A stretch of 64,000 nt of DNA from a bacterium. GTDB taxonomy: Bacteria; RBG-13-61-14; DATKZS01. The stretch covers positions 320,001 to 384,000 of the forward strand of contig CAXXFL010000001.1 in NCBI GenBank assembly GCA_963674965.2. Reading direction: 5' to 3'. The first letter of the stretch is position 1; every line of letters starts with the position of its first letter. The position numbers and the translations under genes are program-made. The notes under the pieces were generated by a model. It did not search any database and was not told where the DNA came from. It saw only the letters and a list, made by a program, of their open reading frames with translations. This document shows, piece by piece, positions 43,650 through 56,287 of the stretch.

Positions 43650-43743
43650 TTTATCCGAATTTATTTACGAACGTACCCTGTACGTATATTATATAATAAT
43701 TGGCGTTTATTTAAAACTTCCGGGCTTTTCGCTCGCGGATAAA

Positions 43744-44751
43744 TTATCGGGAAGGCCGGGGAGGGGCGGGTTTTCGGCAGGCGGCGCTCATGCGTTTTTG
43801 CCACTTGGGCTTTCCCCTGAAAACCAGGTAGGCCTTGATATAGAGGGCGACGTCGCTCTGATTGAAGTCGGGGCCGTTGAGCATGACCTTGACGTTCTGG
43901 GCCGACCTCCTGAAATTGGGGGTCCGCCAGGGGAAGGCGAAGTCGAAATCGAGGAAATAAAACTTCCAGCCGTCCTTTAAATTCTCGATCATGGCGTTCT
44001 TCTCGAGGTCGTGCGTGTAGAAGCCATGGCGGTGAAGGGCCGCCGCGGCGTGGGCCAGGGCGATGATAAAGGTCCTCCTTTCCTCCTCGCCGAGTTGGCC
44101 GAGCCAGTTAACGTAGGCCTGGTAATCCAGGACCGCTCCTCCCAGCTCCTCCATGAAAAGGACCGCCCGGACCGGCGCGCCAAGCCGCGACTCCACGAGC
44201 AGGGCGACCGGCACGGTCACGTTAAAGCCCTTGTCCTTGAGGTAGAGAAGGTTGATGAAGTTTCTTTCCGGCTCGAGGCGGAGCAGATATTTCTCGACGC
44301 CCCGATATATCTCCTTGCCGGAAAAGTCGTAGTACTTGGCCAGGCATTTGCCGCGGCCGGTCTCGAGACGGGCGGCGGAGATGATTTTCCTTTTATACGT
44401 CGCCTCGATCTCTTCCCTTACCTCCCCGCGCCCCCGCTCCTTGTCCCAGACGGAGACCAACTCGAGGACTTGATCCAGCCCGTACTCGGGGTTGATAAGG
44501 ATTCTCCTTTTATATTTCGAGCCGGGAGGGGAAGGAGCCTTGACATGGGCGTGGGACCGGAAGTGTCTCGTTTTTTCCAGGAACAGCCCCAGGCCGGTCC
44601 TCGGCTCGCCTCCGCCTTGACGCGGGGGTAAAGAATCGCGAGTCGCCAGGATAATATCGAGATTGCCGCCCATGGACTCGACCCATCGCAGGTCCGGCCG
44701 GCCCATGGTTTTTTCGTCGTGCCTTGCCATGCTCATCGACGCCGGCGCCAC
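43744..44751 (-). CDS. Kdo/WaaP/InaA-like kinase-fold protein (paralog of 42765-43649); start uncertain
   Basis: LAKYY, EPERNF, GFNVTVPVAL, LHRHGFYTHDLEKN, YFLDFDFAFPWR. Confidence 0.65.
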   Translation of the reverse strand: MAPASMSMARHDEKTMGRPDLRWVESMGGNLDIILATRDSLPPRQGGGEPRTGLGLFLEKTRHFRSHAHVKAPSPPGSKYKRRILINPEYGLDQVLELVSVWDKERGRGEVREEIEATYKRKIISAARLETGRGKCLAKYYDFSGKEIYRGVEKYLLRLEPERNFINLLYLKDKGFNVTVPVALLVESRLGAPVRAVLFMEELGGAVLDYQAYVNWLGQLGEEERRTFIIALAHAAAALHRHGFYTHDLEKNAMIENLKDGWKFYFLDFDFAFPWRTPNFRRSAQNVKVMLNGPDFNQSDVALYIKAYLVFRGKPKWQKRMSAACRKPAPPRPSR

Positions 44752-44760
44752 GCTCGCGGG

Positions 44761-46578
44761 CTAGCGGACTCCCCTGGCCTCGAGCGCCCTTATCTCGGCG
44801 GCCCATTTCTCGCGCTCCTCCTCCCCCACCTCCGGGTCGGGAAGAAGCGAGCGGCGCGTGCAGTTGACGAGCGCCTGCAGGGTCTGGTAGCGGCGGGTCA
44901 AGGCTATGGCCGGCGGCAGGTGGTCGCGGATAATGTCCCCTATTACGTCCACCCCCAGCTTTTCGCCCTTGATGATCGAGTGGGCCTTGAGCTCCGAGCG
45001 AAGGGACGCGAAGTTGGCGGCCGACGTGCCCCCGATCATCTCGTCGAGCCTGGTCAGTTCCTCGTCGGTGGGCGGGTGGTCCATTACCGACTCGACCGTC
45101 CAGCGCAGGAACTCTTTTCTGTCGTCGCCCTCCGCGTCGAGTATGGGAATGATCAGGTCTCCCACCCTGCCCGGCCGCCGGATGTCGGGGGAAAGGAGCT
45201 GAATCCTGGCGGTCATCAAAAGCCAGATCACCCGGCCGCGAAGCTTGGGGTCGCTCATCATGGCCTGGATTTTTCCGGTCAGCCTTCTTTCCGTCGAGTG
45301 CGTCTCCGGTCCCACCCCTCCGAACTGGGTGTCGGCCTCATCCACGAAGATAAGCACCTTGGCCAGGGCGTCGAGCACGCGCCGGAGCCGCTCGAAGATG
45401 ACGTCGGTCTGGCCGAACCACTGGCTCCGGATGTTCTTGAGGACCAGTACCACCATGTCCAACTCGCTGGCCACGGCCTCGAAGACGAAGGTCTTGCCGC
45501 CGCCGATGGGGCCGCACACGGCCGCGCCGGGCAGGGCCTCGGCTCCCGCGGCCTTGAAGCGGGGTATCAACTCGGCGCCCAGGAACTCCTTGAGCCTGGA
45601 GAAGCCCACCACGTCGTCCAGGCAATGGCCGGGCTTTTTGAACTCGACTATGTCCTCGCCGAGCTGGCTTTGAATGTGCTCCTCCACCTTGTCCACCACG
45701 TCGGCCAGGGTCAGGTCGCGGCCCTCGTGGATGGCCCCCTTCAAGAGTTGGTTCAGCGCGTGGATCGTGAGACCCGCCGTGAATCGGGCCAGGTCGTTCT
45801 TGTCCCCCCACAGCCTCAGCTTGCGAGTCGAGGACCGGCGGCCGTCGAACCATTCGATGAACTCGAGCCGCTCCTCCTCGTCCGGCGCCGGAACGCTTAC
45901 CTCGATGACCTGGGGAAGACGGGACACCCGGTGGTTGATGAGGCTGCGCGACTCCGAGAAAAGGACCACCGCGTCGCCCCCGTCCATGAAGCCGGGGTCG
46001 GAGAACCAGTCCCGGCAGACGCTCACGCGGTGGCGGTCGGCGTCGGACAGGCTCACTATCTCTCCCTCCGGTATGACCATGTCAGCCGCCTCGATGAGGA
46101 TGATGAGGTCCTCGCTCAAAAGGGGCCGGTCGCCCAGGCGCGCTCGGGAGCAAAGGCACATCTGGCGGAGTATCTCGAGGGCAACGGTCGGGTTGCCCAC
46201 CGCGGACTTGAGGTTGGCGTCAAAGGCCTGGTTCATGGTCTCGAGCTTGGCCCGGGCCTTGTTCGAGGCCAGCATGATCTCGACGGCCAGGGCGTTGTAG
46301 TCCATGCCGCTGCGCCATTTCAGCCAGGCCTCCCTCACCTTCTCCCGGTCCTTGTCGTCGATGAAGCGGATGGGCCCGTTCAGCTCGTAGACGATGAGTA
46401 TCTTGTTCTTGACCGCCCACTGGCCGGTGAGGAAATCCACCAGGGGCGCGTAGCCGGAGTCCGGGCCCGGCTGCCGGAAAAGGTCGTGTATGTTTCCGGT
46501 CATGACGATGACCCTGGACTGTCCCGAGTTGAGGACCCTGCCGGAGATTTTCAGAAACTCGTAATCGGGCGCGCTCAT
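44761..46578 (-). CDS. Classical-clade AAA+ ATPase with degenerate N-terminal AAA-like domain (SpoVK/Ycf46/Vps4 family)
   Basis: DDVVG, Walker A GPIGGGKT, pore loop RSQWFGQ, Walker B IFVDEAD, SRH/Arg finger DIRRPGR; N-terminal half has GNIHD, ILIEAAD, PAPDEEER but no Walker A. Confidence 0.85.
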   Translation of the reverse strand: MSAPDYEFLKISGRVLNSGQSRVIVMTGNIHDLFRQPGPDSGYAPLVDFLTGQWAVKNKILIVYELNGPIRFIDDKDREKVREAWLKWRSGMDYNALAVEIMLASNKARAKLETMNQAFDANLKSAVGNPTVALEILRQMCLCSRARLGDRPLLSEDLIILIEAADMVIPEGEIVSLSDADRHRVSVCRDWFSDPGFMDGGDAVVLFSESRSLINHRVSRLPQVIEVSVPAPDEEERLEFIEWFDGRRSSTRKLRLWGDKNDLARFTAGLTIHALNQLLKGAIHEGRDLTLADVVDKVEEHIQSQLGEDIVEFKKPGHCLDDVVGFSRLKEFLGAELIPRFKAAGAEALPGAAVCGPIGGGKTFVFEAVASELDMVVLVLKNIRSQWFGQTDVIFERLRRVLDALAKVLIFVDEADTQFGGVGPETHSTERRLTGKIQAMMSDPKLRGRVIWLLMTARIQLLSPDIRRPGRVGDLIIPILDAEGDDRKEFLRWTVESVMDHPPTDEELTRLDEMIGGTSAANFASLRSELKAHSIIKGEKLGVDVIGDIIRDHLPPAIALTRRYQTLQALVNCTRRSLLPDPEVGEEEREKWAAEIRALEARGVR

Positions 46579-47525
46579 GCCAGCACTCCTTGTCCTTTTC
46601 CTTCCTCGAGCTGTTTCCAGAAGACGGCCGACCCCTCGGGCGGCTGGAGGTTGCGGGCGTCGAAGGTCGACTCCCTAATTTCCTCGCGCTGCTTGACGAA
46701 GGTATCGAAGTTCCTCGGCTCGTCGGGACGGTAAACGGGGGCGCACCGGTCGTAGACCACCGTGGCCCCGGGCGGCTCCTCGAGCCCGGCTCCTTTCCAG
46801 TCCCAGTACTGGCTAAGGCCTACCACCCTGTCTCCCACGAAAATGGCCTCGTTAAGCTCGTGGGTGACGATGAGGACCGTGTAGGGGGGCGGCTCGTTTC
46901 TCGACCTGGCCTCGAGGTTCTCCGCGTAGAGGTTGAGGAGCAGGCGCTGGAGTTCCTCGCGGGTCGCCTCGTCCAGGGCCCCGAAGGGCTCGTCCAGAAG
47001 AAGTATCTCGGGCTTCATGATCAGCGCCTGGGCCACCGCCACCCTTTGACGCATGCCGCCCGACATCTGGGCCGGATAAAGGTCCACCGCGTCGGCCAGC
47101 TTCAGCTTCTCCAGAAAACTCGTGGCCGCGGCCAGGTGCTCCCTTCTAAGCCCGCGCCATTTCGAGAAGCCCAAAAGACGCCCCGCGACGCTGGTCTGAT
47201 CCAGCTTCAGCCCGAAGGCCACGTTTTGCCTGGCCGTGAGAAAGGGAAAAAGGGAGTACTGCTGGTACACGATGCCCCGGTCGCGTCCTGGCCCCCTGAC
47301 CGCCAGGGCCCTTTCGCTCCCCGCCTCTTTGACCTTGACGCTACCCTCACAAGGCGGGTGGGTGCCCACGATGGCGCGAAGGAGGGTCGATTTGCCGCAG
47401 CCGCTGGGACCGACCAAGGACACGATCTCGCCCCTGATTATCTGAAGGTTCACGTCGTAAAGGACCCGCTTGGGCCCGAACCAGTGGGAAACGCCGCGGC
47501 ACTCGAGGACCAGGTCGCGGTCCAT
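46575..47525 (-). CDS. ABC transporter ATP-binding protein (NitT/TauT type)
   Basis: GPSGCGKS, DRGIVYQQYSLFPFLT, MSGGMRQR, LLDEPFGALD, VTHE. Confidence 0.92.
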   Translation of the reverse strand: MDRDLVLECRGVSHWFGPKRVLYDVNLQIIRGEIVSLVGPSGCGKSTLLRAIVGTHPPCEGSVKVKEAGSERALAVRGPGRDRGIVYQQYSLFPFLTARQNVAFGLKLDQTSVAGRLLGFSKWRGLRREHLAAATSFLEKLKLADAVDLYPAQMSGGMRQRVAVAQALIMKPEILLLDEPFGALDEATREELQRLLLNLYAENLEARSRNEPPPYTVLIVTHELNEAIFVGDRVVGLSQYWDWKGAGLEEPPGATVVYDRCAPVYRPDEPRNFDTFVKQREEIRESTFDARNLQPPEGSAVFWKQLEEGKGQGVLA

Positions 47526-47528
47526 GGC

Positions 47529-48335
47529 TCACCTTCCCTCCGGCGAGAACCAGGGGCAAAGCGCCCTTTGCGTCCTTCTCGTCAGGTAGTCCATGGAGAA
47601 GCCGAAGGCCGCCAGCAGGGCGAGGTAGGGGTAGACCACCTCCATGTTCAAAAGCTTGGACTGGAGCCGGATGCGGTAGCCGAAGCCCACGTCGCCCACC
47701 ACCATCTCGGCCGCGATAAGATAGACCATGGCCGGCCCTATTTGCAGGCGGGCCGCGTCGATGATCTTGGGCAGGATGGCGGGAAAGATGACGTTCCAGA
47801 TCAGCTCGGGCTGGGACGCGCCCAGGGTATGGGCCTTGTATAAAAGCTCGTCGGGCACCTCCTTGACGGCCAGGTAGACCGACTGGGACAGGGTGGGCAG
47901 GACCCCGAACACGATCATGGCCACGTACATTTCCGTGTCGGTTCCCACCATGACGAAGAACACGGCCAGGGCCGCCGTGGGAGGGACCTTGGCCAGGAGC
48001 GACATGGGAGGCACCAGGAAGGACTCGAAGGTCGCGTAGCACCCCATCAGGAGTCCCAGGACCACGGCCAGGACCACGCCGATGGAAAGGCCCAGGAAGA
48101 GCCGGATGGCCGTGGCCTTCGAGTCCTCGATCACCCAGCGCTCGCCGCTCCTGGAGTTGGCTAGGACCGCCTTTTTCACGCCCCCGCCCATCTGCTTCCA
48201 AGTGGGTATGGTGGTGTCGTCCGGGTTTTTCACGTGCTGTCTGTAAGATAGCATGGTGTAGAGACCAAGGAGCGCGACCACGGAAAGGGCGCTGAGCAAA
48301 AGGGCGGCGTTCCTGGAGATGGGTTGTCGGATCAT
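47529..48335 (-). CDS. ABC transporter permease (NitT/TauT type)
   Basis: About 6 TMs, KVPPTA, EAA-loop KAHTLGAS, YLIAAE, GFGYRI. Confidence 0.9.
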   Translation of the reverse strand: MIRQPISRNAALLLSALSVVALLGLYTMLSYRQHVKNPDDTTIPTWKQMGGGVKKAVLANSRSGERWVIEDSKATAIRLFLGLSIGVVLAVVLGLLMGCYATFESFLVPPMSLLAKVPPTAALAVFFVMVGTDTEMYVAMIVFGVLPTLSQSVYLAVKEVPDELLYKAHTLGASQPELIWNVIFPAILPKIIDAARLQIGPAMVYLIAAEMVVGDVGFGYRIRLQSKLLNMEVVYPYLALLAAFGFSMDYLTRRTQRALCPWFSPEGR

Positions 48336-48354
48336 ATGATTTTCCCATGGATAC

Positions 48355-48387
48355 GGGGCGGACGCGACGACCGCCGCGCCTCGCCCC
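48355..48387 (-). other. GC-rich intergenic hairpin between solute-binding protein and permease genes
   Basis: Minus strand GGGGCGAGGCGCGGCGGTCGTCGCGTCCGCCCC folds on itself; no U-tract; a position typical of mRNA-stabilising stems. Confidence 0.45.
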
Positions 48388-48415
48388 TTATTAGTACGTT
48401 AACGATCGGCCGGGC

Positions 48416-49501
48416 TTACTTGCTCGCGGCCTGGTAGGCCTTGACGTAAGCCGGGTCGAGCCTGAAGTTGGCGTCGGCGGCCGCGGCCTTGTCGCCGTAG
48501 CCGACCTTGGGGGCCTTGTCCACGATCTCGTGGTCCACGCAGAACTTGACGACCTTTTCCATGATCCCCTTGGTGGCGTCGTCGGTGAGGACCTTGGTCC
48601 CCTCCTCGGGGGTCGAGTAGAAGCGGGTCTGCTCGACCACCTTCTTCATGGCCTCGAGGTCTAGGTGGGAGAACTTCTCGCCCAGGGCCACGAGGGTCTC
48701 GTCCCGCGTCTTCTCGTCCTTCATCCTCTGGTTGACCTGGTAGAAGGCGTCGATCACGGCGTGGGCGAACTTGTCGCCGCCGGGCTTATCAAGCGACTCC
48801 TGGGACATGACCACCATGTCGATGATCTCGCCGGGTATCTTGGTCGAGTCGAAAAGGACCTTGGCGTCCTTTCTTTTATTCAGGGTCTCGAGCACGAACG
48901 GGTTCCACACCACGATGGCCTCGTAGCCCTCGTGTCCCTGCTGCATGGCCAGGGCGGCCGCGCCCGGGTCCATGTTGGTGAACTTGTAGTCGGCCTCCTT
49001 CTCGCCCAGAAGCTCGAGGTTCCGAACGAAGCAGTACTCGGAGACCGTCTTGGCCAGGCCGTAGACGGGCTTGCCTTTTAGCTGCTTCACGTCGGTCACG
49101 CCGCCGGCCACGATGAGGGCGTCGGCCCCGAAGCTGGTCGAGGTGGGCAGGATGCCGACCGACTTGATGGTCAGGCTGGGGTTTAAAGCGTCCATGTTGG
49201 TGATGCACACGGCGTCCACGTTGCCCGAGCCGTACATCTGGAGGCACGGGTCGTACTCGGCCTCCTTAAGCTCGACGTCCACGCCCCACTTCTTTTCCAC
49301 CGGGCCGAGCTTTCCCTTCTTGCCGTCGATGATCCCGTACTCGTGGGCCACGCCAAAGGCGCTCCATGACGGGTACTCGCTCCAGGCCAAAGAGAAAGTG
49401 GGAACGTCCTCAGCCTCGGCCGTGCCCGCTATCCATACCATCGGGCTGATCGCCAAAACAACCAGGGCGATCCCCAACGCATTCTTCCTTAAGTTTTTCA
49501 T
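48416..49501 (-). CDS. Periplasmic solute-binding protein (SsuA/THI5/NMT1-like)
   Basis: Signal peptide ending AEA; AWSEYPSW, TNMDAL, STSFGADA, VVWNP, FDSTKIPGEIIDMVV. Confidence 0.85.
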   Translation of the reverse strand: MKNLRKNALGIALVVLAISPMVWIAGTAEAEDVPTFSLAWSEYPSWSAFGVAHEYGIIDGKKGKLGPVEKKWGVDVELKEAEYDPCLQMYGSGNVDAVCITNMDALNPSLTIKSVGILPTSTSFGADALIVAGGVTDVKQLKGKPVYGLAKTVSEYCFVRNLELLGEKEADYKFTNMDPGAAALAMQQGHEGYEAIVVWNPFVLETLNKRKDAKVLFDSTKIPGEIIDMVVMSQESLDKPGGDKFAHAVIDAFYQVNQRMKDEKTRDETLVALGEKFSHLDLEAMKKVVEQTRFYSTPEEGTKVLTDDATKGIMEKVVKFCVDHEIVDKAPKVGYGDKAAAADANFRLDPAYVKAYQAASK

Positions 49502-49544
49502 CTCTTCCCTCCTCTCGGTTGAATATAAGTCTACTTCTTGTCCC

Positions 49545-50372
49545 TTACTCGGGCAGGGATTCCTTCTTGTCCGAGGCGGGCGCGGCCTTGGCCGCCGCGT
49601 CGGTCTCTCCCGCCAGTCCCACCAGGGCGTCGAACTCGGAGGTCGAGGCCGAGGTCCTGGCGTACTCGAGGAACTCCGCCTCCTGGACCTTGGCGTCCGT
49701 GCCCGCCAGCTCCTTGGATATCCTGGCCTCGGCCTTGACCTCCTGCCGAAGCTCGCGCATCCTTTGAAGCTCCTTTTCCGCGCCGTCCTCCGCGATGCCC
49801 GCGAAGGCGTCGGCGATCTCCTTCTCCTGCTTGGCCGTGATCATGTCCGCCACCGCGTCGTGGGCCTCGGCCTTGATATTGTCTATGTCGCGAGCCAGGC
49901 TCTGGAGCTGGACCTTGTGCTCGCCTATCCTTTTTCCGTACTCGGCCACGTCCCGCTCGAGCTCGTCGATCCGGGCCTGCTTCTCGGCCAGGGTCGAGCT
50001 GAAGTCGTTATAGGCGGCCAGGCACTTCATGTAATCCTCGTTGGTCTGGATTTCCTCCTTGGATTTTCCCTCGCCCTGAAGGCGGGCCACCTCCTGCTTG
50101 GCCTTGGCCAGGGCCCCGGCCCGAAGGCGCTCGAGCTTCTCGACCTCCTCGGTCAGCCCCTTGACCTTGGCGATCTTGTTCTCCTGCTGGGCAATAAGAC
50201 CCGCCACCGCCTGCTTGTACTGCTGGATGCGGGCGGTCTTGTCGCGTATGACCTCGTCGTACTTGGCCCGCATCACGTGGGGGTTGGTATCCAGGGTGCG
50301 CCTGGCCGCGTCTATCTGGCCGGTCATCAGATACCCCAGCGCCTTAAACCATCTTCCCAAGGCTCCAAACAT
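49545..50372 (-). CDS. PspA/IM30 (Vipp1, ESCRT-III-like) family protein
   Basis: N-terminal amphipathic helix MFGALGRWFKALGYL, NP turn, then IRDKTARIQQYKQAVAGLIAQQ...ALAKA long coiled-coil hairpin; entirely helical; AAGGAGG RBS. Confidence 0.72.
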   Translation of the reverse strand: MFGALGRWFKALGYLMTGQIDAARRTLDTNPHVMRAKYDEVIRDKTARIQQYKQAVAGLIAQQENKIAKVKGLTEEVEKLERLRAGALAKAKQEVARLQGEGKSKEEIQTNEDYMKCLAAYNDFSSTLAEKQARIDELERDVAEYGKRIGEHKVQLQSLARDIDNIKAEAHDAVADMITAKQEKEIADAFAGIAEDGAEKELQRMRELRQEVKAEARISKELAGTDAKVQEAEFLEYARTSASTSEFDALVGLAGETDAAAKAAPASDKKESLPE

Positions 50373-50452
50373 GGCCCATAGTCCTCCTTTATCTTTATCG
50401 CTTACGTCTTAAAAAATAACTCCCCCCGCCTCGAGGGCCTCGCGGCGGGCTT

Positions 50453-51247
50453 CTATAGCTCCCTGGTTCCCAGTTCCTCGTCCAGGCGCTTCATCCTTTC
50501 CGCCACCGACCTGGCCACCTCGAGGCCCCGGTCGAGCTCCTCGCGGACGCGGGCCAGCTCCGACGCCTGGGAGTCGCTTCCCGCGGTCACGCTCTGGATG
50601 CCCGCCAGGATTTTCCCGAGCTGCTTGATGCTCTCTCCCACGTCGGCGATGATCCGCTCCCTCTGCTGGAGAATCGGTTGTTGCGCGTCCCTGGTGGCCA
50701 TGGTCCTGGCCGTGTTCCAGAGCTGGAGCGTCTTCTCGAGGGACTTGACGCAGCTTCCGAAAAGCTCCTCCACCCGGGAGTTAATGCCCATGGCGGTGAA
50801 GGAATCGACCCCCGCGGACCAGTCCCGGCTCGAGTCGAAGGCCTTGGTCAGGGCCCGAAGATCACGCAGGCTCCACTCGGTGCGGGGGTCCCCGTCGGCC
50901 GCCAGCCGCCGGTCCAGGTCGTCGAGGGCCCGCTCGCGCTCGGCCTGAGCCTCGGCCTCGAGCTCGTGGACCACCTTCTTGCCCAGGTCCTCCTTGCTCA
51001 CGAAAAAGCGCGTGGCCGTTACGCCAACGGCCGCCAGTATGGCCGCGACGCCGGCGAACATGGCCGGTCCCGAGTTCAGGTCGAAGGTCCAAAGGGCCAG
51101 GAGGTCCGTGATTCCCGCCAGGGCCGGGACCAGCGTCCAGGGACTGGCGAAGAGCCTCATGAGCATCTTGCGCCGGAAGGTCGTCCGGTCCAGCGCCTTC
51201 TTCGACACGGCCCCCGCCGCGAGTATGTCCTTGTCTTTGCCCATCAC
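50453..51247 (-). CDS. Two-TM membrane protein with cytoplasmic coiled-coil domain
   Basis: Two hydrophobic segments (about aa 33-55 and 62-83) followed by about 180 aa of heptad-rich helix; directly upstream of the PspA-like gene. Confidence 0.75.
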   Translation of the reverse strand: MMGKDKDILAAGAVSKKALDRTTFRRKMLMRLFASPWTLVPALAGITDLLALWTFDLNSGPAMFAGVAAILAAVGVTATRFFVSKEDLGKKVVHELEAEAQAERERALDDLDRRLAADGDPRTEWSLRDLRALTKAFDSSRDWSAGVDSFTAMGINSRVEELFGSCVKSLEKTLQLWNTARTMATRDAQQPILQQRERIIADVGESIKQLGKILAGIQSVTAGSDSQASELARVREELDRGLEVARSVAERMKRLDEELGTREL

Positions 51248-51351
51248 TGAATTATAGCCGACAATTCTCCATCCGGCAGTCGGCTTCGAAAAAGACCGAT
51301 CGTCTTACAATACTCCGACGGCCTCTTTTTGTCTGGCCATCGCGTCATTTT

Positions 51352-51547
51352 TCCCCCGCCAGGGGGATGACATGAATAGCCGTAGGCTTCCAGCCTACGG
51401 GAAAGCGTCCGAATTATCCGCGGCCCTGAAGGGGCCGGACCAAAAAACTTCTCGACAAGTTCGCCCCTTCCAGGGGCGCGTAACTTTGGGGCAAGCCTTC
51501 CGTAGGCCAACGGCCTACGGCTATTCATGTCAACCCCCTCCGGGGGA
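51352..51547. repeat. REP/MITE-like nested palindromic element (196 bp)
   Basis: Ends TCCCCCGCCAGGGGGATGACATGAATAGCCGTAGGC and GCCTACGGCTATTCATGTCAACCCCCTCCGGGGGA are near-perfect inverted repeats; internal hairpins CCGTAGGC..GCCTACGG x2 and GCCC(C)T..AGGGGC x2. Confidence 0.8.
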
Positions 51548-51632
51548 CGGCGGCGGCGACAATGATATAAATCTTGCCATCTCCTCGGCGCGACGTAAAT
51601 GCCAACGCGCCTCAAATCAGCCGACCCTAGCC

Positions 51633-53204
51633 CTAGTACGCGGGCTGCTTGAGCTCGAAGGACACCGACTGGTGGGCGCCGTTGCCGCCCCTGGGCTTGG
51701 CCGCCTCGGCCCTTACCCGGTTGGGGTCCACTCCCGCCGACAAAAGGTAATTGAGGGCCTCCTGGGCCCTCTCCCGGGCCAGCGCCAGGTTGGCGTCGGC
51801 GTCTCCCTCGCTCCGGGCGTGGCCCACCACCAGCAGGTAGTATTGCGGCCACGACTCGAGCTTCCGAGCCAGGTTGTCCATGTCCCGCCGGCTCTGGACG
51901 TTAATGCGGGCCGTTCCCCTGGCGAAGCTGATGGGCTCGATCCGAAGGCTGCCCACCGGCGACAGCTTGTTCCATTCGGCCTCGGAAAGGGGCCTCACCG
52001 CCGCCGAGGTACGGACCTCGTCCAGGTCGTCCGAGTTAAGGCCCAGCCCGTCGATCACGTCTACCTTCTTGGCGGGATGGAAGTTGGCCGCCTGAAGGCT
52101 TCTCAATACGCCGTCGTAAAAAATCGTGTTCGCCTTGCCGCCCAGCGGGTCCTGGCTCATGGCCCCGGTCTTGATAAGGACGTCGGTGATGTTGGCGATG
52201 ATATCCTCGATATGCTGGGCCTGGCCGGCCTGGTGCAGGCCGAAGTAGGCGTAGTTCTCGAGGGTGTTCTTCCACTCGATCCCCTCGACCAGCTTCCTCG
52301 CCTGCTCGTCGGTAAGGGACTCGGACCCGGTGGCCTTGGCGTCGCTTTTGACCAGGGCCTCCATGCCCCCGGTCTTGTGCTCGCTCGAGTAGGCCGAGCG
52401 GAAGTAGGCCTCGACAACGGCCCGGACCAGGTCGGGGTTGTCGCGCAGAAATGTCCTTTCCGCCACCAGCACGTCAACGATGTAGCCCTTCAGCTTGCCC
52501 GAGTCCAGAAGCAAATGGGCCCCGTCGTACTCGAGGGCCCTCGAGACGTAGGGCTCCCACATCACGTAGGCCCTTTTCGAGTTCACGTCCGAGGAGGTCA
52601 TCTTCTTGAAAACGTCGCCCGCCCCGTCGGCCTCCTCCCACCACTTGTCCGGCAGACTGGGAAGGTTGAAGTGGGCTATCACCGTCCGGGCCAAAAACTC
52701 GCTGGGCGAGTTGGGCGTGAGCACGATCCTGGCCTCGGGGTCGTCCAGGTCCTGGACGCTGGCCACGGCGTCCTTAAAGGCCACGATGGCGTCGGCGCCC
52801 TTGGTCTCGTCTATGACCATGACGATGGTGGCGGGAAACTTGCCGATCTTTTCGCCCGAGGTCAAGAAGGAGTCGATGGTAAAGACGGCCATCTGGATTT
52901 TCCTGGAGGCCAGTGCCTTCATGCGGGACTCGTAGTCAGCCGCGTCGTCCTCCACCACCAGCTTGACGCCCTGGGCCTTGAGGTCGTTCCTCATGGCGTC
53001 GCTTCGCAGCACGCAGTAGCCCGAGAAGGAGTCGGCCGCCAGGACGATCTCGTTCTTGTACTGGCTCGAGGAACTGGTCTCGTCGGTCAACTCTCCCCTC
53101 AGCCTCGGCAGGATAAGAAACTTGGTGGCCACGGCCAGGGCGGCCAGGATCACGATCCAAACCGCCGCCGCCGCCAGTATGCCCTTGACGCTTTTTCCGG
53201 CCAT
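51633..53204 (-). CDS. Membrane-anchored SsuA/THI5-like solute-binding protein fused to an OmpA-like C-terminal domain
   Basis: N-terminal TM; DSFSGY, DETKGADAIV, MWEPYVS, YIVDVLV; C-terminal ISFARG...VVGHAR...ANLALARERA...GVDPNRV. Confidence 0.8.
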   Translation of the reverse strand: MAGKSVKGILAAAAVWIVILAALAVATKFLILPRLRGELTDETSSSSQYKNEIVLAADSFSGYCVLRSDAMRNDLKAQGVKLVVEDDAADYESRMKALASRKIQMAVFTIDSFLTSGEKIGKFPATIVMVIDETKGADAIVAFKDAVASVQDLDDPEARIVLTPNSPSEFLARTVIAHFNLPSLPDKWWEEADGAGDVFKKMTSSDVNSKRAYVMWEPYVSRALEYDGAHLLLDSGKLKGYIVDVLVAERTFLRDNPDLVRAVVEAYFRSAYSSEHKTGGMEALVKSDAKATGSESLTDEQARKLVEGIEWKNTLENYAYFGLHQAGQAQHIEDIIANITDVLIKTGAMSQDPLGGKANTIFYDGVLRSLQAANFHPAKKVDVIDGLGLNSDDLDEVRTSAAVRPLSEAEWNKLSPVGSLRIEPISFARGTARINVQSRRDMDNLARKLESWPQYYLLVVGHARSEGDADANLALARERAQEALNYLLSAGVDPNRVRAEAAKPRGGNGAHQSVSFELKQPAY

Positions 53205-53207
53205 GCC

Positions 53208-54206
53208 TCAGCTCCTCTCTTTTGGGCCGGCCTTGCTCTTTTTCCTTCTCGAGCCTACGGTCCTGGCCGCCGCGTAGACCCCGGCGAAGGCGAACAGTTG
53301 GGCATAGGAGAACATGCCGCCCAGGCATCCCTGGCCCGACCTTTTCGATCCGGAGTTTTGGGGCGGAGTCTTCCGGGCCGTATCGGCGGGGGGCGTCTCC
53401 TTTGAAGGCGGAGTTTCCGGCGGAGGCTCGGTCACGGGCTGGGGCTTGGGCGGCTTCTCGCCGATGGGATGGTTGCCGCTTTCGGTCAGGGCCTCGACCA
53501 TGGCCATGGCCATCTCGTCTGGTATTCCCTCGAGGGCGGAGAAGGCGTCCTCACTCGCCGCGTCGCTTCCAGTGCCGGCCACCTCGGCGAAGACCTCGGC
53601 CACCGCCTTTTTGAGGGAGGCCGGGTCGTCGGCGCGCCTGTAGGAGTTGACCTTGGTGGCCAGGGTATGGTTGCCGGCCATGGCCACGCCGATCACGTCC
53701 ACCGTGACGCCCCGGGCCATGACCTCGGGCGTGTATTCCTCGACCAGCCTGGTGTCCTCGGCCTCCCCGTCCGTCACGATGAGGAGGCGGTAGGAACCGT
53801 AGCCGTACTGCTTGTTCCTTTGCTCGAGCAGCTTGTCGGCGCCCTTCTTGATATACGCTCCAAGAGGGGTGCCGCCGCCGGGCAGGGGCTCGTTGATGGC
53901 GCGCTCGAGCTCCGCGTCGTGGCGGGGCCCCAGCTCGTAGGCCCAGTCGTTCTCGAGGTTCCTGGCGCTGAACACCAGAAGTCCCACGTTGACGTCGGGG
54001 GGAACGGTTTTCAGCACCTCGCGCAGGGCCGTCTTGGCCGCGTCCATTTTCTTGATCTTGGTCCCCCGCATGGTCCCGTCCATGGAACCCGAGGAATCCA
54101 GCACGATGACGACGTTGTCGGCGGCCAGGTCGTCGCCCGCTCCCGCTCCGCCGGCGGAAAGAGCCAGGGCCATAATGGCCGCCAGTATCAATCCGTTTCT
54201 TTTCAT
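53208..54206 (-). CDS. Secreted VWA-domain protein with Pro-rich linker and C-terminal Gly-Cys/TM/basic tail
   Basis: Signal peptide; MIDAS IVLDSSGSM, GGGTPLG, IVTDGE, VDVIG; PKPQPVTEPPPETPP linker; GQGCLGG + hydrophobic + RRKKSK. Confidence 0.85.
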   Translation of the reverse strand: MKRNGLILAAIMALALSAGGAGAGDDLAADNVVIVLDSSGSMDGTMRGTKIKKMDAAKTALREVLKTVPPDVNVGLLVFSARNLENDWAYELGPRHDAELERAINEPLPGGGTPLGAYIKKGADKLLEQRNKQYGYGSYRLLIVTDGEAEDTRLVEEYTPEVMARGVTVDVIGVAMAGNHTLATKVNSYRRADDPASLKKAVAEVFAEVAGTGSDAASEDAFSALEGIPDEMAMAMVEALTESGNHPIGEKPPKPQPVTEPPPETPPSKETPPADTARKTPPQNSGSKRSGQGCLGGMFSYAQLFAFAGVYAAARTVGSRRKKSKAGPKERS

Positions 54207-54225
54207 GGCCCCATCCCCCCTTGAA

Positions 54226-56067
54226 TTAAAAGTCGAAGTCGCTCGAGGAGGCGGCCTCGGCCGTCACCCGGAGAAGGCGGAACTCGACGCGCATGTTCTG
54301 CTTGGCCTCCTCCATGCTTCTGGGCTTGGCGATGAAGGGCTCCCGAATGCCCGCGCCCACGGCCTGTATCTGGCTCTTGTCCAGCCGTACGCCCTTTTTG
54401 CCCGCGTATTGGATGACCGAGTCCCTGACCGCCTCGGCCCTCTCGCGGGAGAGGTTGAGGGCGGCCTGCATGGTCTGGCGCGGGTTGACGCCCGCGGCGC
54501 CGTCGAACTCGCCCGCCTGTATCAACTCGACTATCTTGCCCGTGTCCTTGAGGTCGAGCGGCCTTCCCTTGAAGGAATACGAGTAGTTGCCCGAGCTTCC
54601 CGAGCGCTTGAGGACGCCCTTTTCCATGCCGGCGTTGACCAGGTCCAGGAGGGTCTTGGTGGGGTCCGAGTGTCCGCGGATGACGATGACGGCGTTTCCG
54701 TAGCGGTTGGCGGTCTCGACCACCCTCTGGTACTCGACTCCGTACTGGACGTCGCTGAACTCGTTCTGGTTGGGCTCGAAGTTGATGGTGAAGCTGACGA
54801 TGGTCCGGTCGTCCAGTCCCCCTCCGCTCTCGAGGGCCTCGATCTCCTTAAGGACCGCCTCGGCCCGGAAACGGTCTCCCTGCTCGACCTTGGTCTTGGT
54901 CAGGTAGCCGGTGAAGGCGGTCGAGTTATAGTCGAAATCGGGCTTGAAGAAGCCGCTTCTCACCGAGGCGTAGCCCCTGCCCGCGGCGAGGTCGAGGGCC
55001 GATTTCTGAAAGGCGTCGAATCCGGAGAGGTTGTTCTTCTGGGTGAAGAAGGCCACGTTGCCGGGGTAGCCCACCAGGGTGCAGTCCGCCAGAAGCCCGT
55101 GGGCGTCCTCCTCGAGGGTCGGTATGGTCTCCTGCCCGTAAATGTCCTGGGTCATCTTGAGGAGGGCCATGTACTCCTTGCTTCCCTTGGCCTCGTAGGC
55201 CTTCTTCAGATCGACAACCTCCTCGCTGGCCTTGAAGTAGCCGGCCACGAACTTCGAGACCAGGTCGCGGTTGGCGTCGAAAAAGTCCTTGCGGCAGGCG
55301 TACACGTCCGCTATCGAGCGCGACATCTCGGCCGTCGAGACCAGTACCCTGGCCCCCTTGACCGTGCCCTCCGCGCCGGTGCCCGCGTTCTGGAGACCGC
55401 CGGTCAGGCCGATCATGTCGGGGCTGATCACGAAGCAGGCGTCCAGGTCGTCGTTCTTCCTGAACATCTCGGCCGGCGACTTGGCGGTGCCGGTCAGGTC
55501 CTCGGCCCAGACCACGGTCACGTCGTCCCAACTCAGGCGCGCGGTCTTAAGTACGTCGTCGAACATGCCCACGTGGGGCCCGCCCTGCTGGAGGACCACT
55601 TTTTTGCCCTTCAGGTCGGCGATGGTCTTCACGCTTTTGCGGGCCACCATGTGGTCGCCGGCGGACCAGGTCATCTGCATGATAATCACGGGCTTGGTGC
55701 GGGCGTCGCTTCCGATAACCTCGCTGGCCATGCCCATCATGCGGAAGGTCCCCCTTAAAAAGGGCGTCTCGCCGGACATGTAATTCTTCACCTGTCCCAC
55801 GAAGTCGTCGCCCGCCACCAGCTTTAAGTTGAGGCCGAGATTCTGGTAGATGCTTCCCGGCTTGGTGGCAAGGCCCCCGTTGGCGTAAAAGGTCACCATG
55901 TCGCCGCCCCAGGTGATATAGGGCACGGTCAAGGGCGAGGTTTTAGTGACGTTTCCGACCTTGACCGGTCCGACCAGGTCCTTGAAGCTTTGCTCTCCCG
56001 CGGCCCGGGCGGTAAAGACCGCCGCGAAAGCCAGGATCGAGGCGGCCAACCTTATTTTCAATCTCAT
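54226..56067 (-). CDS. Large secreted SsuA/THI5-like solute-binding protein fused to an OmpA-like domain
   Basis: Signal peptide MRLKIRLAAS...ARA; PYITWGGD, TWSAGD, ADLKGKKV, IADVYA; C-terminal INFEPNQ...IRGHSD...LSRERAEAVR...NMRVEF; GGAGG RBS. Confidence 0.8.
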   Translation of the reverse strand: MRLKIRLAASILAFAAVFTARAAGEQSFKDLVGPVKVGNVTKTSPLTVPYITWGGDMVTFYANGGLATKPGSIYQNLGLNLKLVAGDDFVGQVKNYMSGETPFLRGTFRMMGMASEVIGSDARTKPVIIMQMTWSAGDHMVARKSVKTIADLKGKKVVLQQGGPHVGMFDDVLKTARLSWDDVTVVWAEDLTGTAKSPAEMFRKNDDLDACFVISPDMIGLTGGLQNAGTGAEGTVKGARVLVSTAEMSRSIADVYACRKDFFDANRDLVSKFVAGYFKASEEVVDLKKAYEAKGSKEYMALLKMTQDIYGQETIPTLEEDAHGLLADCTLVGYPGNVAFFTQKNNLSGFDAFQKSALDLAAGRGYASVRSGFFKPDFDYNSTAFTGYLTKTKVEQGDRFRAEAVLKEIEALESGGGLDDRTIVSFTINFEPNQNEFSDVQYGVEYQRVVETANRYGNAVIVIRGHSDPTKTLLDLVNAGMEKGVLKRSGSSGNYSYSFKGRPLDLKDTGKIVELIQAGEFDGAAGVNPRQTMQAALNLSRERAEAVRDSVIQYAGKKGVRLDKSQIQAVGAGIREPFIAKPRSMEEAKQNMRVEFRLLRVTAEAASSSDFDF

Positions 56068-56287
56068 TATAATCCTCCCTCCGCTGTATGATCGATTCGA
56101 TACTTCCCCGTGAGGCATAACTATCCCATTATGGCTTTAATTTAAGGATTTTATACAACGGCGCGGCCTTGGCGTCAAGGTTTCGCCTTTATTCATAAAT
56201 GATGGCGGACCCGATAATTGCCGCTCCTCTTTTTATTTTTGCTTTCCCCGGGTCTTTGAATGAAAATGGTTTCGCGTCGGCGTTGAA

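Follow-up and report, generated by a model that had tools for sequence, protein, structure and literature searches.

The window, by which we mean the whole stretch of 64,000 nucleotides that was analysed, contains a cluster of nine genes (g1-g9), all co-oriented on the minus strand between positions 44761 and 56118. The cluster has the following features:

g1, 54226..56067 (longest ORF to 56118), minus strand: secreted protein with an NMT1-type solute-binding domain and a C-terminal OmpA-like domain
g2, 53208..54206, minus strand: periplasmic VWA protein with a MIDAS motif, a Pro-rich linker, a C-terminal membrane anchor and a basic tail
g3, 51633..53204, minus strand: N-terminally membrane-anchored protein with a solute-binding protein (SBP)-like domain and an OmpA-like peptidoglycan-binding domain
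Inverted repeat, 51354..51546, no strand: in the spacer between g3 and g4; 47-nt arms, 81% complementary, with 99 nt between the arms
g4, 50453..51247, minus strand: protein with a probable membrane hairpin and a helical domain; no Pfam family
g5, 49545..50372, minus strand: divergent PspA/Vipp1 protein (bacterial ESCRT-III superfamily)
g6, 48416..49501, minus strand: free periplasmic SBP of the NitT/TauT (SsuA/TauA-like) type
g7, 47529..48335, minus strand: ABC importer permease, TauC/SsuC-like
g8, 46575..47525, minus strand: ABC ATPase with a C-terminal extension of about 75 residues; its stop overlaps the start of g9 by 4 bp
g9, 44761..46578, minus strand: classical AAA+ ATPase with a Cdc48/p97-like C-terminal half

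An initial annotation had described nine co-oriented genes, and all nine minus-strand ORFs are indeed present where it placed them and carry the domains that it named. From g1 to g9, the intergenic distances calculated from the coordinates are 19, 3, 385, 80, 43, 80, 3 and -4 bp. The description as tightly spaced or overlapping thus applies to most junctions, including the 4-bp overlap reported for g8 and g9, but fails at the g3-g4 junction. The spacer of 385 bp is unusually long, compared with a median of 85 bp in other loci. It holds the inverted repeat, which matches no Rfam family and whose 19-nt core has two sites in the window, both in the repeat. As had been claimed, no pspB, pspC, pspF, Lia or catabolic gene was detected inside the cluster with Pfam and NCBIfam. 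Long plus-strand ORFs over the cluster DNA lack domain evidence and are read as antisense shadows in DNA with a GC content of 62-64%. A co-oriented Kdo/WaaP-like kinase gene, absent from the initial annotation, begins 9 bp past g9, and no counterpart was found in any of the 80 related loci described below.

Hydrophobic N-terminal segments are found in g1, g2, g3 and g6. For g1, the start at 56067 corresponds to Met18 of the longest ORF and yields a signal-peptide-like N-terminus; it is likely to be the true start. The NMT1 domain of g1 scores 30.2 bits in Pfam and its OmpA domain only weakly (19.1 bits, cut-off 27.2), while residues 552-614 are covered by YiaD/OmpA-type NCBIfam matches. Its median identity in other loci is 68% (42 loci). 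In g3, the OmpA domain scores 45.1 bits, the NMT1 match is slightly below the cut-off (20.2 bits), TIGR03427 is matched at 8e-12 (NCBIfam) and the hydrophobic segment comprises residues 8-26. The VWA domain of g2 scores 49.2 bits in Pfam; among 43 orthologues, the DxSxS (MIDAS) motif is found in 42 and the C-terminal hydrophobic segment in 40.

Genes g6-g8 code for the components of an ABC importer. For g6, NCBIfam returned TIGR03427 (2e-48, 165 bits against a cut-off of 333.9) and the SsuA family (2e-16), and a taurine-binding protein was the sole match in a sequence search of the PDB (E=0.0025). The three SBP-like domains of the cluster (g1, g3, g6) can barely be aligned to one another. The permease g7 matches BPD_transp_1 (Pfam, 57.1 bits) and TauC (NCBIfam, 7e-23), and the ATPase g8 matches ABC_tran with 110 bits (Pfam). 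The cluster corresponds to no characterised transporter operon: all NCBIfam matches are below the equivalog cut-offs, and no experimental work on any cluster member was found in the literature.

For g5, the window protein itself matches Pfam PspA_IM30 with E=0.0016 and 18.5 bits (gathering cut-off 33.9). Of 25 family members in one set, 14 matched this model at E<=0.01, as did 12 of 60 in another; the best value was 3.4e-7. When a profile from 60 diverse members was searched against the PDB, Vipp1/PspA chains came first (E=2.2e-8), with query positions 132-250 aligned to positions 98-213 of Vipp1. A profile built from close relatives alone retrieved no PspA or Vipp1 from the PDB, and hhalign comparisons to the single E. 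coli PspA sequence were negative (probabilities 0.5% and 1.7%). The AF2 model has a moderate pLDDT of 68.6 and a helix order that fits alpha0 to alpha5. Its best Foldseek match is Vipp1 (6zvr, E=6.6e-3) and several Vipp1 entries are within the top 20, with nothing at E<=0.001. Profile and model thus support g5 as a divergent member of the PspA/Vipp1 superfamily with a remote relationship, and to this extent the PspA/ESCRT-III-like call made for the product of 49545-50372 stands, but the protein remains below the Pfam cut-off. The N-terminal 15-mer has the character of an amphipathic helix (hydrophobic moment 0.47, mean hydrophobicity 0.39). At the C-terminus, a conserved EFDxLxGL helix is followed by a variable linker and a terminal LPE. 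All 35 sequences compared, which come from loci with and without the other seven genes, preserve EF..L.GL and the terminal LPE without variation, unlike the linker between them.

The C-terminal half of g9 is predicted to be an active Cdc48/p97-like module with intact motors and pore loop. Pfam AAA is matched at residues 354-473 (52.6 bits), the best solved relatives are VAT/p97/Cdc48 chains (about 2e-23), and in NCBIfam the CDC48 model (E=9e-19) is preferred to the CdvC model (E=1e-8). Among 35 sequences, no variation was seen in Walker A (G356..G359.G361-K362), Walker B (D413-E414), the pore loop WFG (W387..G389) or RRPGR (R467-R468-P-G-R471). The N-terminal half is probably a degenerate, dead AAA domain, as suggested by its hhalign match to the C-terminal half (probability 52.6%, E=1.4e-4) and a weak Atlas lead. 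Pfam detected neither an MIT domain nor a recognisable substrate-binding N-domain.

The protein g4 occurs in every complete nine-gene locus (median identity 40%). The AF2 model (pLDDT 83.1) has two helices at 35-54 and 59-82 and then five long ones, which makes a two-helix membrane hairpin with a subsequent all-helical domain of about 180 residues probable; this domain is probably cytoplasmic. No significant fold or sequence match was obtained in the PDB, and for this protein, which the initial annotation had called coiled-coil, no relation to PspA/g5, Snf7, ESCRT-III or any solved fold could be detected.

To describe the distribution of the cluster we compared 80 related loci, all from metagenome-assembled genomes (MAGs). 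All nine genes are present in the same order and on the same strand in 34 of these, and a further 19 are collinear but cut by contig ends. In 24 loci, g5 and g9 are found alone, side by side. Among the 46 loci with enough flanking sequence on both sides there are 33 full nine-gene loci, 10 such dyads and 3 incomplete loci; the genes therefore do co-occur in other genomes. Nine-gene loci carry labels from at least 10 phylum-level groups, but these labels depend on binning and are uncertain because every carrier found is a MAG. In the 13 of the 24 dyad loci that were examined, g5 and g9 were the only families common to at least seven loci. As the pair also occurs alone, the cluster consists of a two-gene PspA-like/AAA+ core that in many lineages lies within a module of seven periplasmic and transport genes. 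In the nine-gene form, g5 is located between g4 and g6 and thus within the transport genes, and the g8-g9 distance has a median of -4 bp (32 loci). Gene content, domain assignments, conserved order and this split into core and accessory genes are direct observations.

We give roughly even chances to the reading that this is a conserved envelope operon around the g5/g9 core, in which a membrane polymer remodelled by an ATPase is linked to wall-tethered capture and to import. The protein-protein contacts, the substrate and the physiological role are what we infer. With its amphipathic N-terminal helix, g5 would bind the cytoplasmic face of the inner membrane and polymerise there. The hairpin protein g4 would probably nucleate or anchor this polymer; a role as polymer receptor is a guess from its position and topology. 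The conserved tail of g5, with its EFDxLxGL helix, flexible linker and terminal LPE, is a candidate handle that a g9 hexamer would grip, so that upon ATP hydrolysis g5 would be threaded and the polymer disassembled or remodelled. This would be the job of Vps4 on ESCRT-III, performed by an independently recruited ATPase. The seven accessory genes would act across the same membrane. The solute-binding domains of g1 (free in the periplasm) and g3 (anchored in the inner membrane) would be held on the peptidoglycan via their OmpA-like domains and, with the membrane-tethered VWA/MIDAS protein g2, might trap a ligand at the wall, supplying or gating the g6-g8 importer. In this way, stabilisation or remodelling of the membrane would be tied locally to transport or envelope sensing; the importer might, for instance, bring in a protective solute when the cell is under osmotic or envelope stress.

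It is unlikely, yet worth serious consideration, that the locus is centred on transport and serves to import a single class of solute, such as osmoprotectants, organosulfonate-like or nitrogen compounds, or substrates that perturb the membrane, with the help of extra wall-tethered capture proteins. Transport would then be risky or stress-induced, and g5/g9 would only protect the membrane, with no mechanical coupling. This accords with the complete and ordinary type I importer set formed by g6-g8 and with the 24 loci in which the PspA/AAA+ pair exists without a transporter. A recurrent link between SBPs and ESCRT, seen also in the ProX solute-binding protein of archaeal ESCRT loci presented by Makarova et al. 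2024, could likewise be physiological and not mechanical. However, invariant gene order, the position of g5 within the transport genes and the translational overlap of g8 and g9 exceed what co-regulation needs. A plain importer would also not usually come with a VWA protein and three SBP domains that differ strongly from one another, two of which carry an OmpA fusion, and no metabolic gene is conserved alongside the cluster in the related loci. We regard it as quite unlikely that g9 acts on a client other than the g5 polymer, which it would extract or unfold (g2 with its tail anchor, g4 or a subunit of the transporter, for instance). There, g5 would be an adaptor or inhibitor of g9, as E. coli PspA is for the AAA+ protein PspF, a case for which binding and regulation are described as established (PMC7619361). 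The Cdc48/p97-like rather than Vps4-like character of g9, which lacks an MIT domain, and the conserved C-terminal anchor of g2 with its basic cytoplasmic tail would fit such a role. Yet g5 and g9 stay adjacent in the 24 dyad loci, where g2 and g4 are absent, so the client must be available without these two. In addition, the invariant g5 tail is equally conserved in dyad and nine-gene loci, and Pfam detected no DNA-binding or sigma-54 interaction module in g9.

An anti-phage or conflict system, with envelope sensing followed by membrane remodelling or abortive membrane damage, is very improbable in our view. The family is patchily distributed, and dyads are intermingled with nine-gene loci on the g9 tree. 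Horizontal spread would be compatible with an identity of about 70% between g5 proteins of different phyla; g4 also weakly matches the ZorA tail (E=5.7e-4 in PADLOC, E=0.002 in NCBIfam). PADLOC, however, returned generic P-loop and coiled-coil matches for the cluster and no system-specific defence match. The window neighbours are ordinary (a B12-radical SAM enzyme, Kdo-type kinases, aminotransferases, a sulfatase and a glycosyltransferase), and neither Pfam nor NCBIfam revealed a nuclease, protease or toxin-like effector in the cluster. That unrelated operons lie side by side by chance has a practically negligible probability. The 385-bp gap does split the cluster in the window, where promoter and terminator scans were uninformative, but the cluster recurs with unchanged order in 34 loci of many phyla; together with the 19 collinear fragments, this refutes chance adjacency for practical purposes.

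When compared to known systems, the cluster shares the set of SBP, permease and ATPase (g6-g8) with NitT/TauT importers (SsuABC, TauABC and the urea-carboxylase-linked TIGR03427). It differs from these in adding two SBP domains fused to OmpA-like domains and in lacking conserved genes for sulfonate or urea catabolism. With the Psp (pspF-pspABCDE) and Lia (liaIHGFSR) systems it has in common a PspA-family effector, small membrane proteins and the inner membrane as the expected site. Unlike these, it has no PspB, PspC, PspF, LiaI/F or two-component genes, its AAA+ partner is of the classical unfoldase type and not a sigma-54 activator, and g5 is too divergent to be linked by hhalign to the single E. 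coli PspA sequence. In mycobacteria, the PspA homologue is likewise encoded beside a small membrane protein, its partner PspM (Rv2743c). By language-model similarity, an Rv2743c-family cluster ranks 27th for g4 (score 0.89), a likeness to be taken as a lead only, as the score is below the tool's lead threshold of 0.9 and no alignment-based support was found.

As in ESCRT-III/Vps4 (CdvB/CdvC) of archaea and eukaryotes, a protein of the ESCRT-III superfamily, for g5 a predicted membrane-binding polymer subunit, is encoded beside a classical AAA+ protein with an aromatic pore loop. The conserved C-terminal peptide of g5, past its flexible linker, is located where MIM motifs sit in ESCRT-III. In contrast to Vps4, g9 has no MIT domain, is nearer to Cdc48/p97 and has a second, degenerate AAA half, while g5 falls on the PspA/Vipp1 rather than the Snf7 side of the superfamily. 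Passages in two reviews (PMC7619361, PMC10936438) state that ESCRT-III/Vps4-type pairs are absent from bacteria.

The closest precedent is computational. The initial annotation had allowed for a mention in a comparative-genomic survey, and such a mention exists: Ravi et al. 2024 (mSystems, PMC11237479) list an association of PspA, AAA+, ABC ATPase, permease and PBPB-OmpA in section 18 and Table S3, with OGG56892.1 from Candidatus Handelsmanbacteria as an example. Compared by description, the shared domain-level parts are PspA, the ABC ATPase, the permease, a PBPB+OmpA protein with signal peptide, an AAA+ protein in which the N-terminal classical AAA domain is inactive and the C-terminal one active, and a membrane-anchored helical protein. 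The order in their Table S3 (PspA, PBPB-OmpA, permease, ABC ATPase, TM-Snf7, AAA) differs from that in the window. The passages on these operons describe one PBPB-OmpA protein and no VWA protein, whereas the window has two SBP-OmpA proteins, one free SBP and one VWA protein, and the Snf7 relation of their TM-'Snf7' protein was not detected for g4. From in silico evidence, these passages propose that solute transport is linked to an ATP-dependent remodelling of membranes and that OmpA binds peptidoglycan, which is the same qualitative reading as ours, reached from other examples.

On the minus strand of the window, between 44761 and 56118, nine co-oriented ORFs follow one another, numbered here from g1 to g9 as they are transcribed. 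ORF calling, Pfam and NCBIfam agree with the set of domains recognized in the initial annotation. The nine genes and their nearest neighbours are as follows (SBP, solute-binding protein).

54226-56118, minus strand: g1, 630 aa, putative SBP-OmpA protein
53208-54206, minus strand: g2, 332 aa, VWA protein
51633-53204, minus strand: g3, 523 aa, membrane-anchored SBP-OmpA protein
50453-51247, minus strand: g4, 264 aa, probable membrane hairpin protein
49545-50372, minus strand: g5, 275 aa, PspA-like protein
48416-49501, minus strand: g6, 361 aa, SBP
47529-48335, minus strand: g7, 268 aa, permease
46575-47525, minus strand: g8, 316 aa, ABC ATPase
44761-46578, minus strand: g9, 605 aa, AAA+ ATPase
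43744-44751, minus strand: Kdo/WaaP-like kinase, a tenth co-oriented gene that starts 9 bp past the g9 stop
42765-43649, minus strand: second Kdo/WaaP-like kinase, downstream of g9 and after the first kinase
56288-57682, plus strand: B12-binding radical SAM gene, divergent, upstream of g1

From g1 to g9, the intergenic spacers are 19, 3, 385, 80, 43, 80, 3 and -4 bp. The earlier description of the genes as tightly spaced holds for most junctions (-4 to 80 bp) and fails only for the 385-bp spacer between g3 and g4. The start that had been proposed for g1, at 56067, corresponds to Met18 of the longest ORF and yields a signal-peptide-like N-terminus, so that it can stand. Besides g1, hydrophobic N-terminal segments occur in g2, g3 and g6, and they are absent from g5, g8 and g9.

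The g3-g4 spacer (51248-51632), which is 385 bp long here compared with a median of 85 bp in other loci, contains an inverted repeat at 51354-51546, with arms of 47 nt that are 81% complementary and have 99 nt between them. This repeat is unique within the window and matched no Rfam family; perhaps it is a hairpin with a regulatory role or a small element that has been inserted there. An Rfam scan of the region 43000-57000 returned no credible RNA, and neither the promoter scan (2 against a shuffle mean of 2.0) nor the terminator scan (17 against a mean of 13.8) rose above shuffled sequence. A terminator-like hairpin followed by a T-run is seen at 50423-50437 (minus strand) in the g4-g5 spacer, which is perhaps meaningless, given the overall outcome of the scan. 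Beyond the radical SAM gene lie a GDSL lipase-like gene and two aminotransferase genes, while GNAT, sulfatase and glycosyltransferase genes are found on the opposite flank.

In order to place the cluster among related ones, one genome per species was scanned with a g5 alignment, which provided 80 loci, all of them from MAG or metagenome records, and these were searched by tblastn with all nine proteins and the kinase at 43744-44751. Co-occurrence in other genomes had been named as a check on the cluster, and all nine genes are found in the same order and on the same strand in 34 of the 80 loci. Another 19 are collinear with this order but cut by a contig end. In 24 loci, g5 and g9 occur alone and directly adjacent, an arrangement that we refer to as the dyad. 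Three further loci have good flanks but lack one or more genes (L023 is without g6, L034 without g9, L037 without g7-g9). Counting only those 46 loci whose flanks reach 5.8 kb or more upstream and 6.3 kb or more downstream, we find 33 full clusters, 10 dyads and 3 incomplete ones. Median identity to the proteins of the window is lowest for g4 (40%) and highest for g1 and g5 (68% each), and the 4-bp overlap between g8 and g9 is the median state in the related loci (n=32). With these synteny counts, a chance adjacency of unrelated operons is next to impossible and can be regarded as excluded for practical purposes. For the kinase at 43744-44751, no counterpart beside the cluster was detected by tblastn in the 80 loci, and it was therefore left out of the system; neither kinase is conserved beside the cluster in these loci, and the two may be co-transcribed with it in the window's genome only.

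The 34 full loci are labelled as Verrucomicrobiota (20), Thermodesulfobacteriota (3) and Planctomycetota (2), with three unassigned and one each from Acidobacteriota, Sumerlaeota, Hydrogenedentota, Pseudomonadota, CSSED10-310 and a 'Bathyarchaeota' bin. The last of these (L017, labelled Candidatus Bathyarchaeia archaeon) carries a full nine-gene cluster, the g9 of which groups with Nitrospiraceae sequences on the g9 tree, and a bin labelled as the actinobacterial family Bifidobacteriaceae (L020) contributes a 2.7-kb fragment. Both labels could result from a binning error or from gene transfer. On a long contig from an uncultured member of the Verrucomicrobiae (L079), each cluster gene is matched in two to four separate tblastn pieces, which suggests frameshifts, either from assembly errors or in a decaying copy.

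The g5 family is large, with at least 1529 homologues at E<=0.001 among 8000 candidates scored and 583 family clusters at E<=0.001 in a HMMER scan of 1.84 billion representatives. The 119 homologues listed, excluding the window's own, are 68-78% identical and have source labels from many phyla. So much identity across phylum labels is unusual in a protein made mostly of coiled coils; it points either to strong constraint along the whole length or to recent horizontal spread.

It is accepted that PspA and Vipp1 are bacterial members of ESCRT-III. The relationship of g5 to them is distant: against the Pfam family PspA_IM30 (PF04012), g5 scores 18.5 bits (E=0.0016), under the gathering cut-off of 33.9. 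At E<=0.01, this family is matched by 14 of the 25 close relatives and by 12 of the 60 more diverse members examined (best 3.4e-7), and it is annotated (precomputed) in 4 of the 120 close homologues listed. Comparison of g5 alone (phmmer) or of a narrower profile with the PDB retrieved coiled-coil noise and no PspA or Vipp1, and hhalign of the family against a single E. coli PspA sequence gave no signal. When a profile of 60 diverse members, drawn from the 583 clusters, was used, however, Vipp1/PspA chains ranked first (6zvr_B, E=2.2e-8, query residues 132-250 on Vipp1 98-213), followed by 8qbr, 8qbv, 8qbw, 8qhx and 7o3w. The family fold runs from alpha0 through a long alpha1/alpha2-3 hairpin to alpha4 and alpha5. 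The AF2 model (pLDDT 68.6) consists of helices at 3-16, 31-100, 112-170, 179-193 and 197-222, and its top Foldseek match is again Vipp1 (6zvr, E=6.6e-3, probability 0.98, TM 0.25-0.29), with more Vipp1 entries among the top 20 and no match reaching E<=0.001. We conclude that g5 represents a distinct, very conserved subfamily within the PspA/Vipp1 superfamily; the original assignment to PspA is upheld, for a divergent member, by the match of the profile to the solved structures.

Both ends of g5 have features of their own. The N-terminal 15-mer is amphipathic (hydrophobic moment 0.47, mean hydrophobicity 0.39), as would be expected for a membrane-binding alpha0. At the C-terminus, an invariant EF..L.GL helix is followed by a variable low-complexity linker and then by a terminal LPE, which is invariant in 35 of 35 sequences, with dyad and nine-gene loci both represented.

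At least 2345 homologues of g9 were found at E<=1e-20 among the candidates scored; the 120 that were listed are all generically named and all originate from MAGs or metagenomes. The only Pfam match in g9 is the classical AAA family (PF00004) at residues 354-473, the C-terminal half resembles VAT/p97/Cdc48 chains (E about 2e-23), and among NCBIfam models that of CDC48 (9e-19) scores better than that of CdvC/Vps4 (1e-8). Invariant in 35 sequences are G356, G359, G361 and K362, D413 and E414, W387 and G389 (WFG), and R467, R468 and R471 (RRPGR), which we take to be Walker A, Walker B, the aromatic pore loop 1 and the arginines of the second region of homology, respectively. Judged by these residues, g9 is a putatively motor-competent classical AAA+ protein of the Cdc48/p97-like kind.

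The N-terminal 325 residues of g9 have no match in Pfam. Aligned by hhalign, the N-terminal half pairs with the C-terminal half over 198 columns (probability 52.6%, E=1.4e-4), with LIILIEAAD opposite VLIFVDEAD, and in the Atlas its nearest named cluster is AAA (score 0.90), a name carried by 40% of the cluster members. Among the invariant columns of this half in 35 sequences there is no GK[ST] and no P-loop lysine. With moderate confidence only, we consider it a predicted inactive AAA domain, in agreement with the 'inactive AAA + AAA' architecture of Ravi et al. An identification of g9 as Vps4/CdvC, which would consist of an N-terminal MIT domain and a single AAA module, was rejected: Pfam found no MIT domain in g9, its N-terminal half aligns to the AAA half, and the CDC48 model scores higher.

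For the dyads, ORFs of 100 aa or more were compared among those 13 of the 24 loci whose flanks are long. Apart from g5 and g9 with their antisense shadows, no family is common to at least 7 of these 13 loci. A g9 tree was computed with 61 rows, namely the window and 60 loci with a g9 ORF of more than 580 aa (loci lacking an ORF of that length were omitted, and truncated nine-gene loci were counted as nine-gene). Dyad and nine-gene contexts are interspersed on this tree; parsimony requires 9 changes of context, a number as low as this was reached by none of 500 label shuffles, and strongly supported branches force at least 3 changes. From the dyad comparison and the interspersed tree it follows that the stable core is the two-gene PspA-like/AAA+ module, while the other seven genes form an accessory module that appears to have been acquired, lost or moved elsewhere en bloc on several occasions. 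In our sample, the core is commonest in Verrucomicrobiota, Planctomycetota and Hydrogenedentota.

In some loci of Acidobacteriota, Planctomycetota and Hydrogenedentota, the dyad has in its vicinity a gene for a giant protein, DUF3686-DUF7902-AAA, which is about 1500-1900 aa long (L061:14175-19832, L068:1388-6844, L069:16217-20743, and also in L067). In one of these loci, it is accompanied by a 671-aa Band_7/SPFH protein (L068:6854-8869). A link between PspA and SPFH proteins is known.

In its AF2 model (pLDDT 83.1), the accessory protein g4 shows a pair of probable membrane helices, at 35-54 and 59-82, and after these five long helices. From the basic residues before the first helix we infer that both ends are cytoplasmic. 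Ravi et al. describe a 'TM+Snf7' protein, but an identity of g4 with Snf7/ESCRT-III was not supported: Snf7 is absent among the best 25 of 68 Pfam families at E<=1 (35 members), hhalign against the g5 family gave probabilities of 0.5% and 2.3%, there is no ESCRT-III among the 50 Foldseek matches listed (the best is IncA, E=0.12), and a profile search of the PDB returned nothing below E=0.06. Pfam, NCBIfam and PADLOC provided nothing usable for g4. In the Atlas, the Rv2743c/PspM family appears as a language-model look-alike (score 0.89), which we mention as a lead only.

The remaining accessory genes code for periplasmic and transport proteins. A VWA domain (49.2 bits) is found in g2. Of 43 orthologues, 42 keep the DxSxS MIDAS motif and 40 end in a hydrophobic anchor with a basic tail, from which we predict that the VWA domain lies in the periplasm and is held at the inner membrane. 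The product of g3 combines a membrane anchor, an SBP-like domain and a clear OmpA domain (PF00691, 45.1 bits against a cut-off of 27.2). In g1, an NMT1-type SBP domain is followed by a weak C-terminal OmpA match (PF00691, 19.1 bits against the cut-off of 27.2), where the OmpA-type models YiaD and TssL cover residues 552-614. A free SBP (g6, SsuA/TauA/TIGR03427-like), a TauC/SsuC-like permease (g7) and an ABC_tran ATPase (g8) make up a standard NitT/TauT-type set for a type I importer. The SBP domains of g1, g3 and g6 can barely be aligned with one another (best local E values 1e-4, 4e-6 and 1.0) and each is kept across phyla; they are three distinct old components and not recent duplicates. 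As all NCBIfam equivalog matches of g6-g8 are below their cut-offs, no substrate is assigned; the sole PDB sequence match of g6 is to a taurine-binding protein (E=0.0025). An extension of about 75 residues, located past the nucleotide-binding domain of g8 and just before the overlapped start of g9, has no family match.

The initial annotation had interpreted the cluster as a multi-component envelope machine, and this view is borne out in part. Its functional linkage is supported by synteny and its PspA component is upheld; the parts, their conservation, their order and the division into core and accessory genes are observed in the loci, and we infer all contacts, the substrate and the physiological role. 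We propose that g5 would polymerise on the inner membrane, where it is probably recruited by g4, and that hexamers of g9 would engage the LPE-tipped tail of g5 and so recycle or remodel the polymer. An interface prediction for full g9 with g5 residues 222-275 (35-row alignments, no controls) gave 0.23 against a mark of 0.32 and counts neither for nor against binding. This cycle would function like that of Vps4 and ESCRT-III, but with a Cdc48-like ATPase that was independently recruited. In the nine-gene form, the polymer cycle would be coupled to wall-tethered ligand capture by g1 and g3, perhaps organised by the VWA protein g2, and the captured ligand would be imported through g6 to g8. Taken as a whole, a mechanism in which g9 remodels the g5 polymer, coupled in the nine-gene form to capture and import, seems to us about evenly poised between right and wrong. 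It is possible, though rather doubtful, that many bacterial phyla run a true ESCRT-III/Vps4-style assembly-disassembly cycle, with a PspA-type polymer and a dedicated Cdc48-derived unfoldase reading the LPE-tipped tail, and that the nine-gene form is mechanically wired to a peptidoglycan-tethered ABC import complex, as a trans-envelope device that reshapes the inner membrane, or makes it bud, wherever ligand is captured.

Other explanations start from the same parts. The system could be centred on the transporter, with the PspA/AAA+ pair merely protecting the membrane, which we consider unlikely. It is quite unlikely that the g9 ATPase acts on another client, with g5 as an adaptor. A defence system, which had been among the roles initially suggested, is very improbable: no system-specific model of PADLOC-DB 2.0 was matched, and the matches are generic only (the ZorA tail coiled coil with 16.6 bits, coiled coils of JetC/LmuB, and P-loops of mad3/AriA/IetA). 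A Zorya-like system was rejected. A classical Psp or Lia system was dismissed as well, there being no pspB, pspC or pspF and no liaI, F, S or R among the nine proteins and the flanking genes tested. Neither does the cluster represent a MoxR-VWA pair such as RavA-ViaA or the Bat operon, because g9 matches PF00004 only and not AAA_3 or AAA_5, and the VWA domain of g2 is expected on the periplasmic side.

The question of how PspA/Vipp1 polymers are dismantled is a live one, and here a PspA-type gene adjoins a gene for a classical AAA+ protein that is predicted to be motor-competent. The conserved C-terminal tail of g5 makes the question of polymer disassembly directly testable in vitro. The nine-gene form has two rare features, SBP domains fused to putative peptidoglycan anchors and an ABC ATPase gene that is translationally overlapped with an AAA+ gene. 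Together they suggest that membrane remodelling may be linked to transport at the wall. The system is widespread and strongly conserved, and it provides a direct experimental way into the possible disassembly of bacterial ESCRT-III polymers.

In a full-text search of a limited literature collection, no experiments on a bacterial pair or cluster of this type came to light, and systems of this kind were previously known only in silico. The initial annotation had allowed for a mention in genomic surveys, and the combination is in fact already on record in Ravi et al. 2024 (PMC11237479). In the passages of that survey available to us, bacterial PspA is reported to co-occur sometimes with a protein of two AAA+ domains, the N-terminal one being inactive, and ATP-dependent membrane remodelling tied to solute transport is proposed. 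According to the available parts of two reviews, a Vps4-like ATPase 'appears absent in bacteria' (PMC7619361) and the Vps4-like partner of ESCRT-III is lacking there (PMC10936438); an ESCRT-III/Vps4-style cycle of the kind proposed here, if true, would contradict these statements. For one type of ESCRT locus in archaea, the latter review also mentions, in the part available, a solute-binding protein, ProX, which is a parallel to the SBP genes described here. Compared with the available passages of Ravi et al., the features added by our analysis are the fixed order of nine genes, the VWA protein, the g8/g9 overlap, a second SBP-OmpA protein together with a separate free SBP, the C-terminal tail motif, and the repeated switching between the dyad and the nine-gene form.
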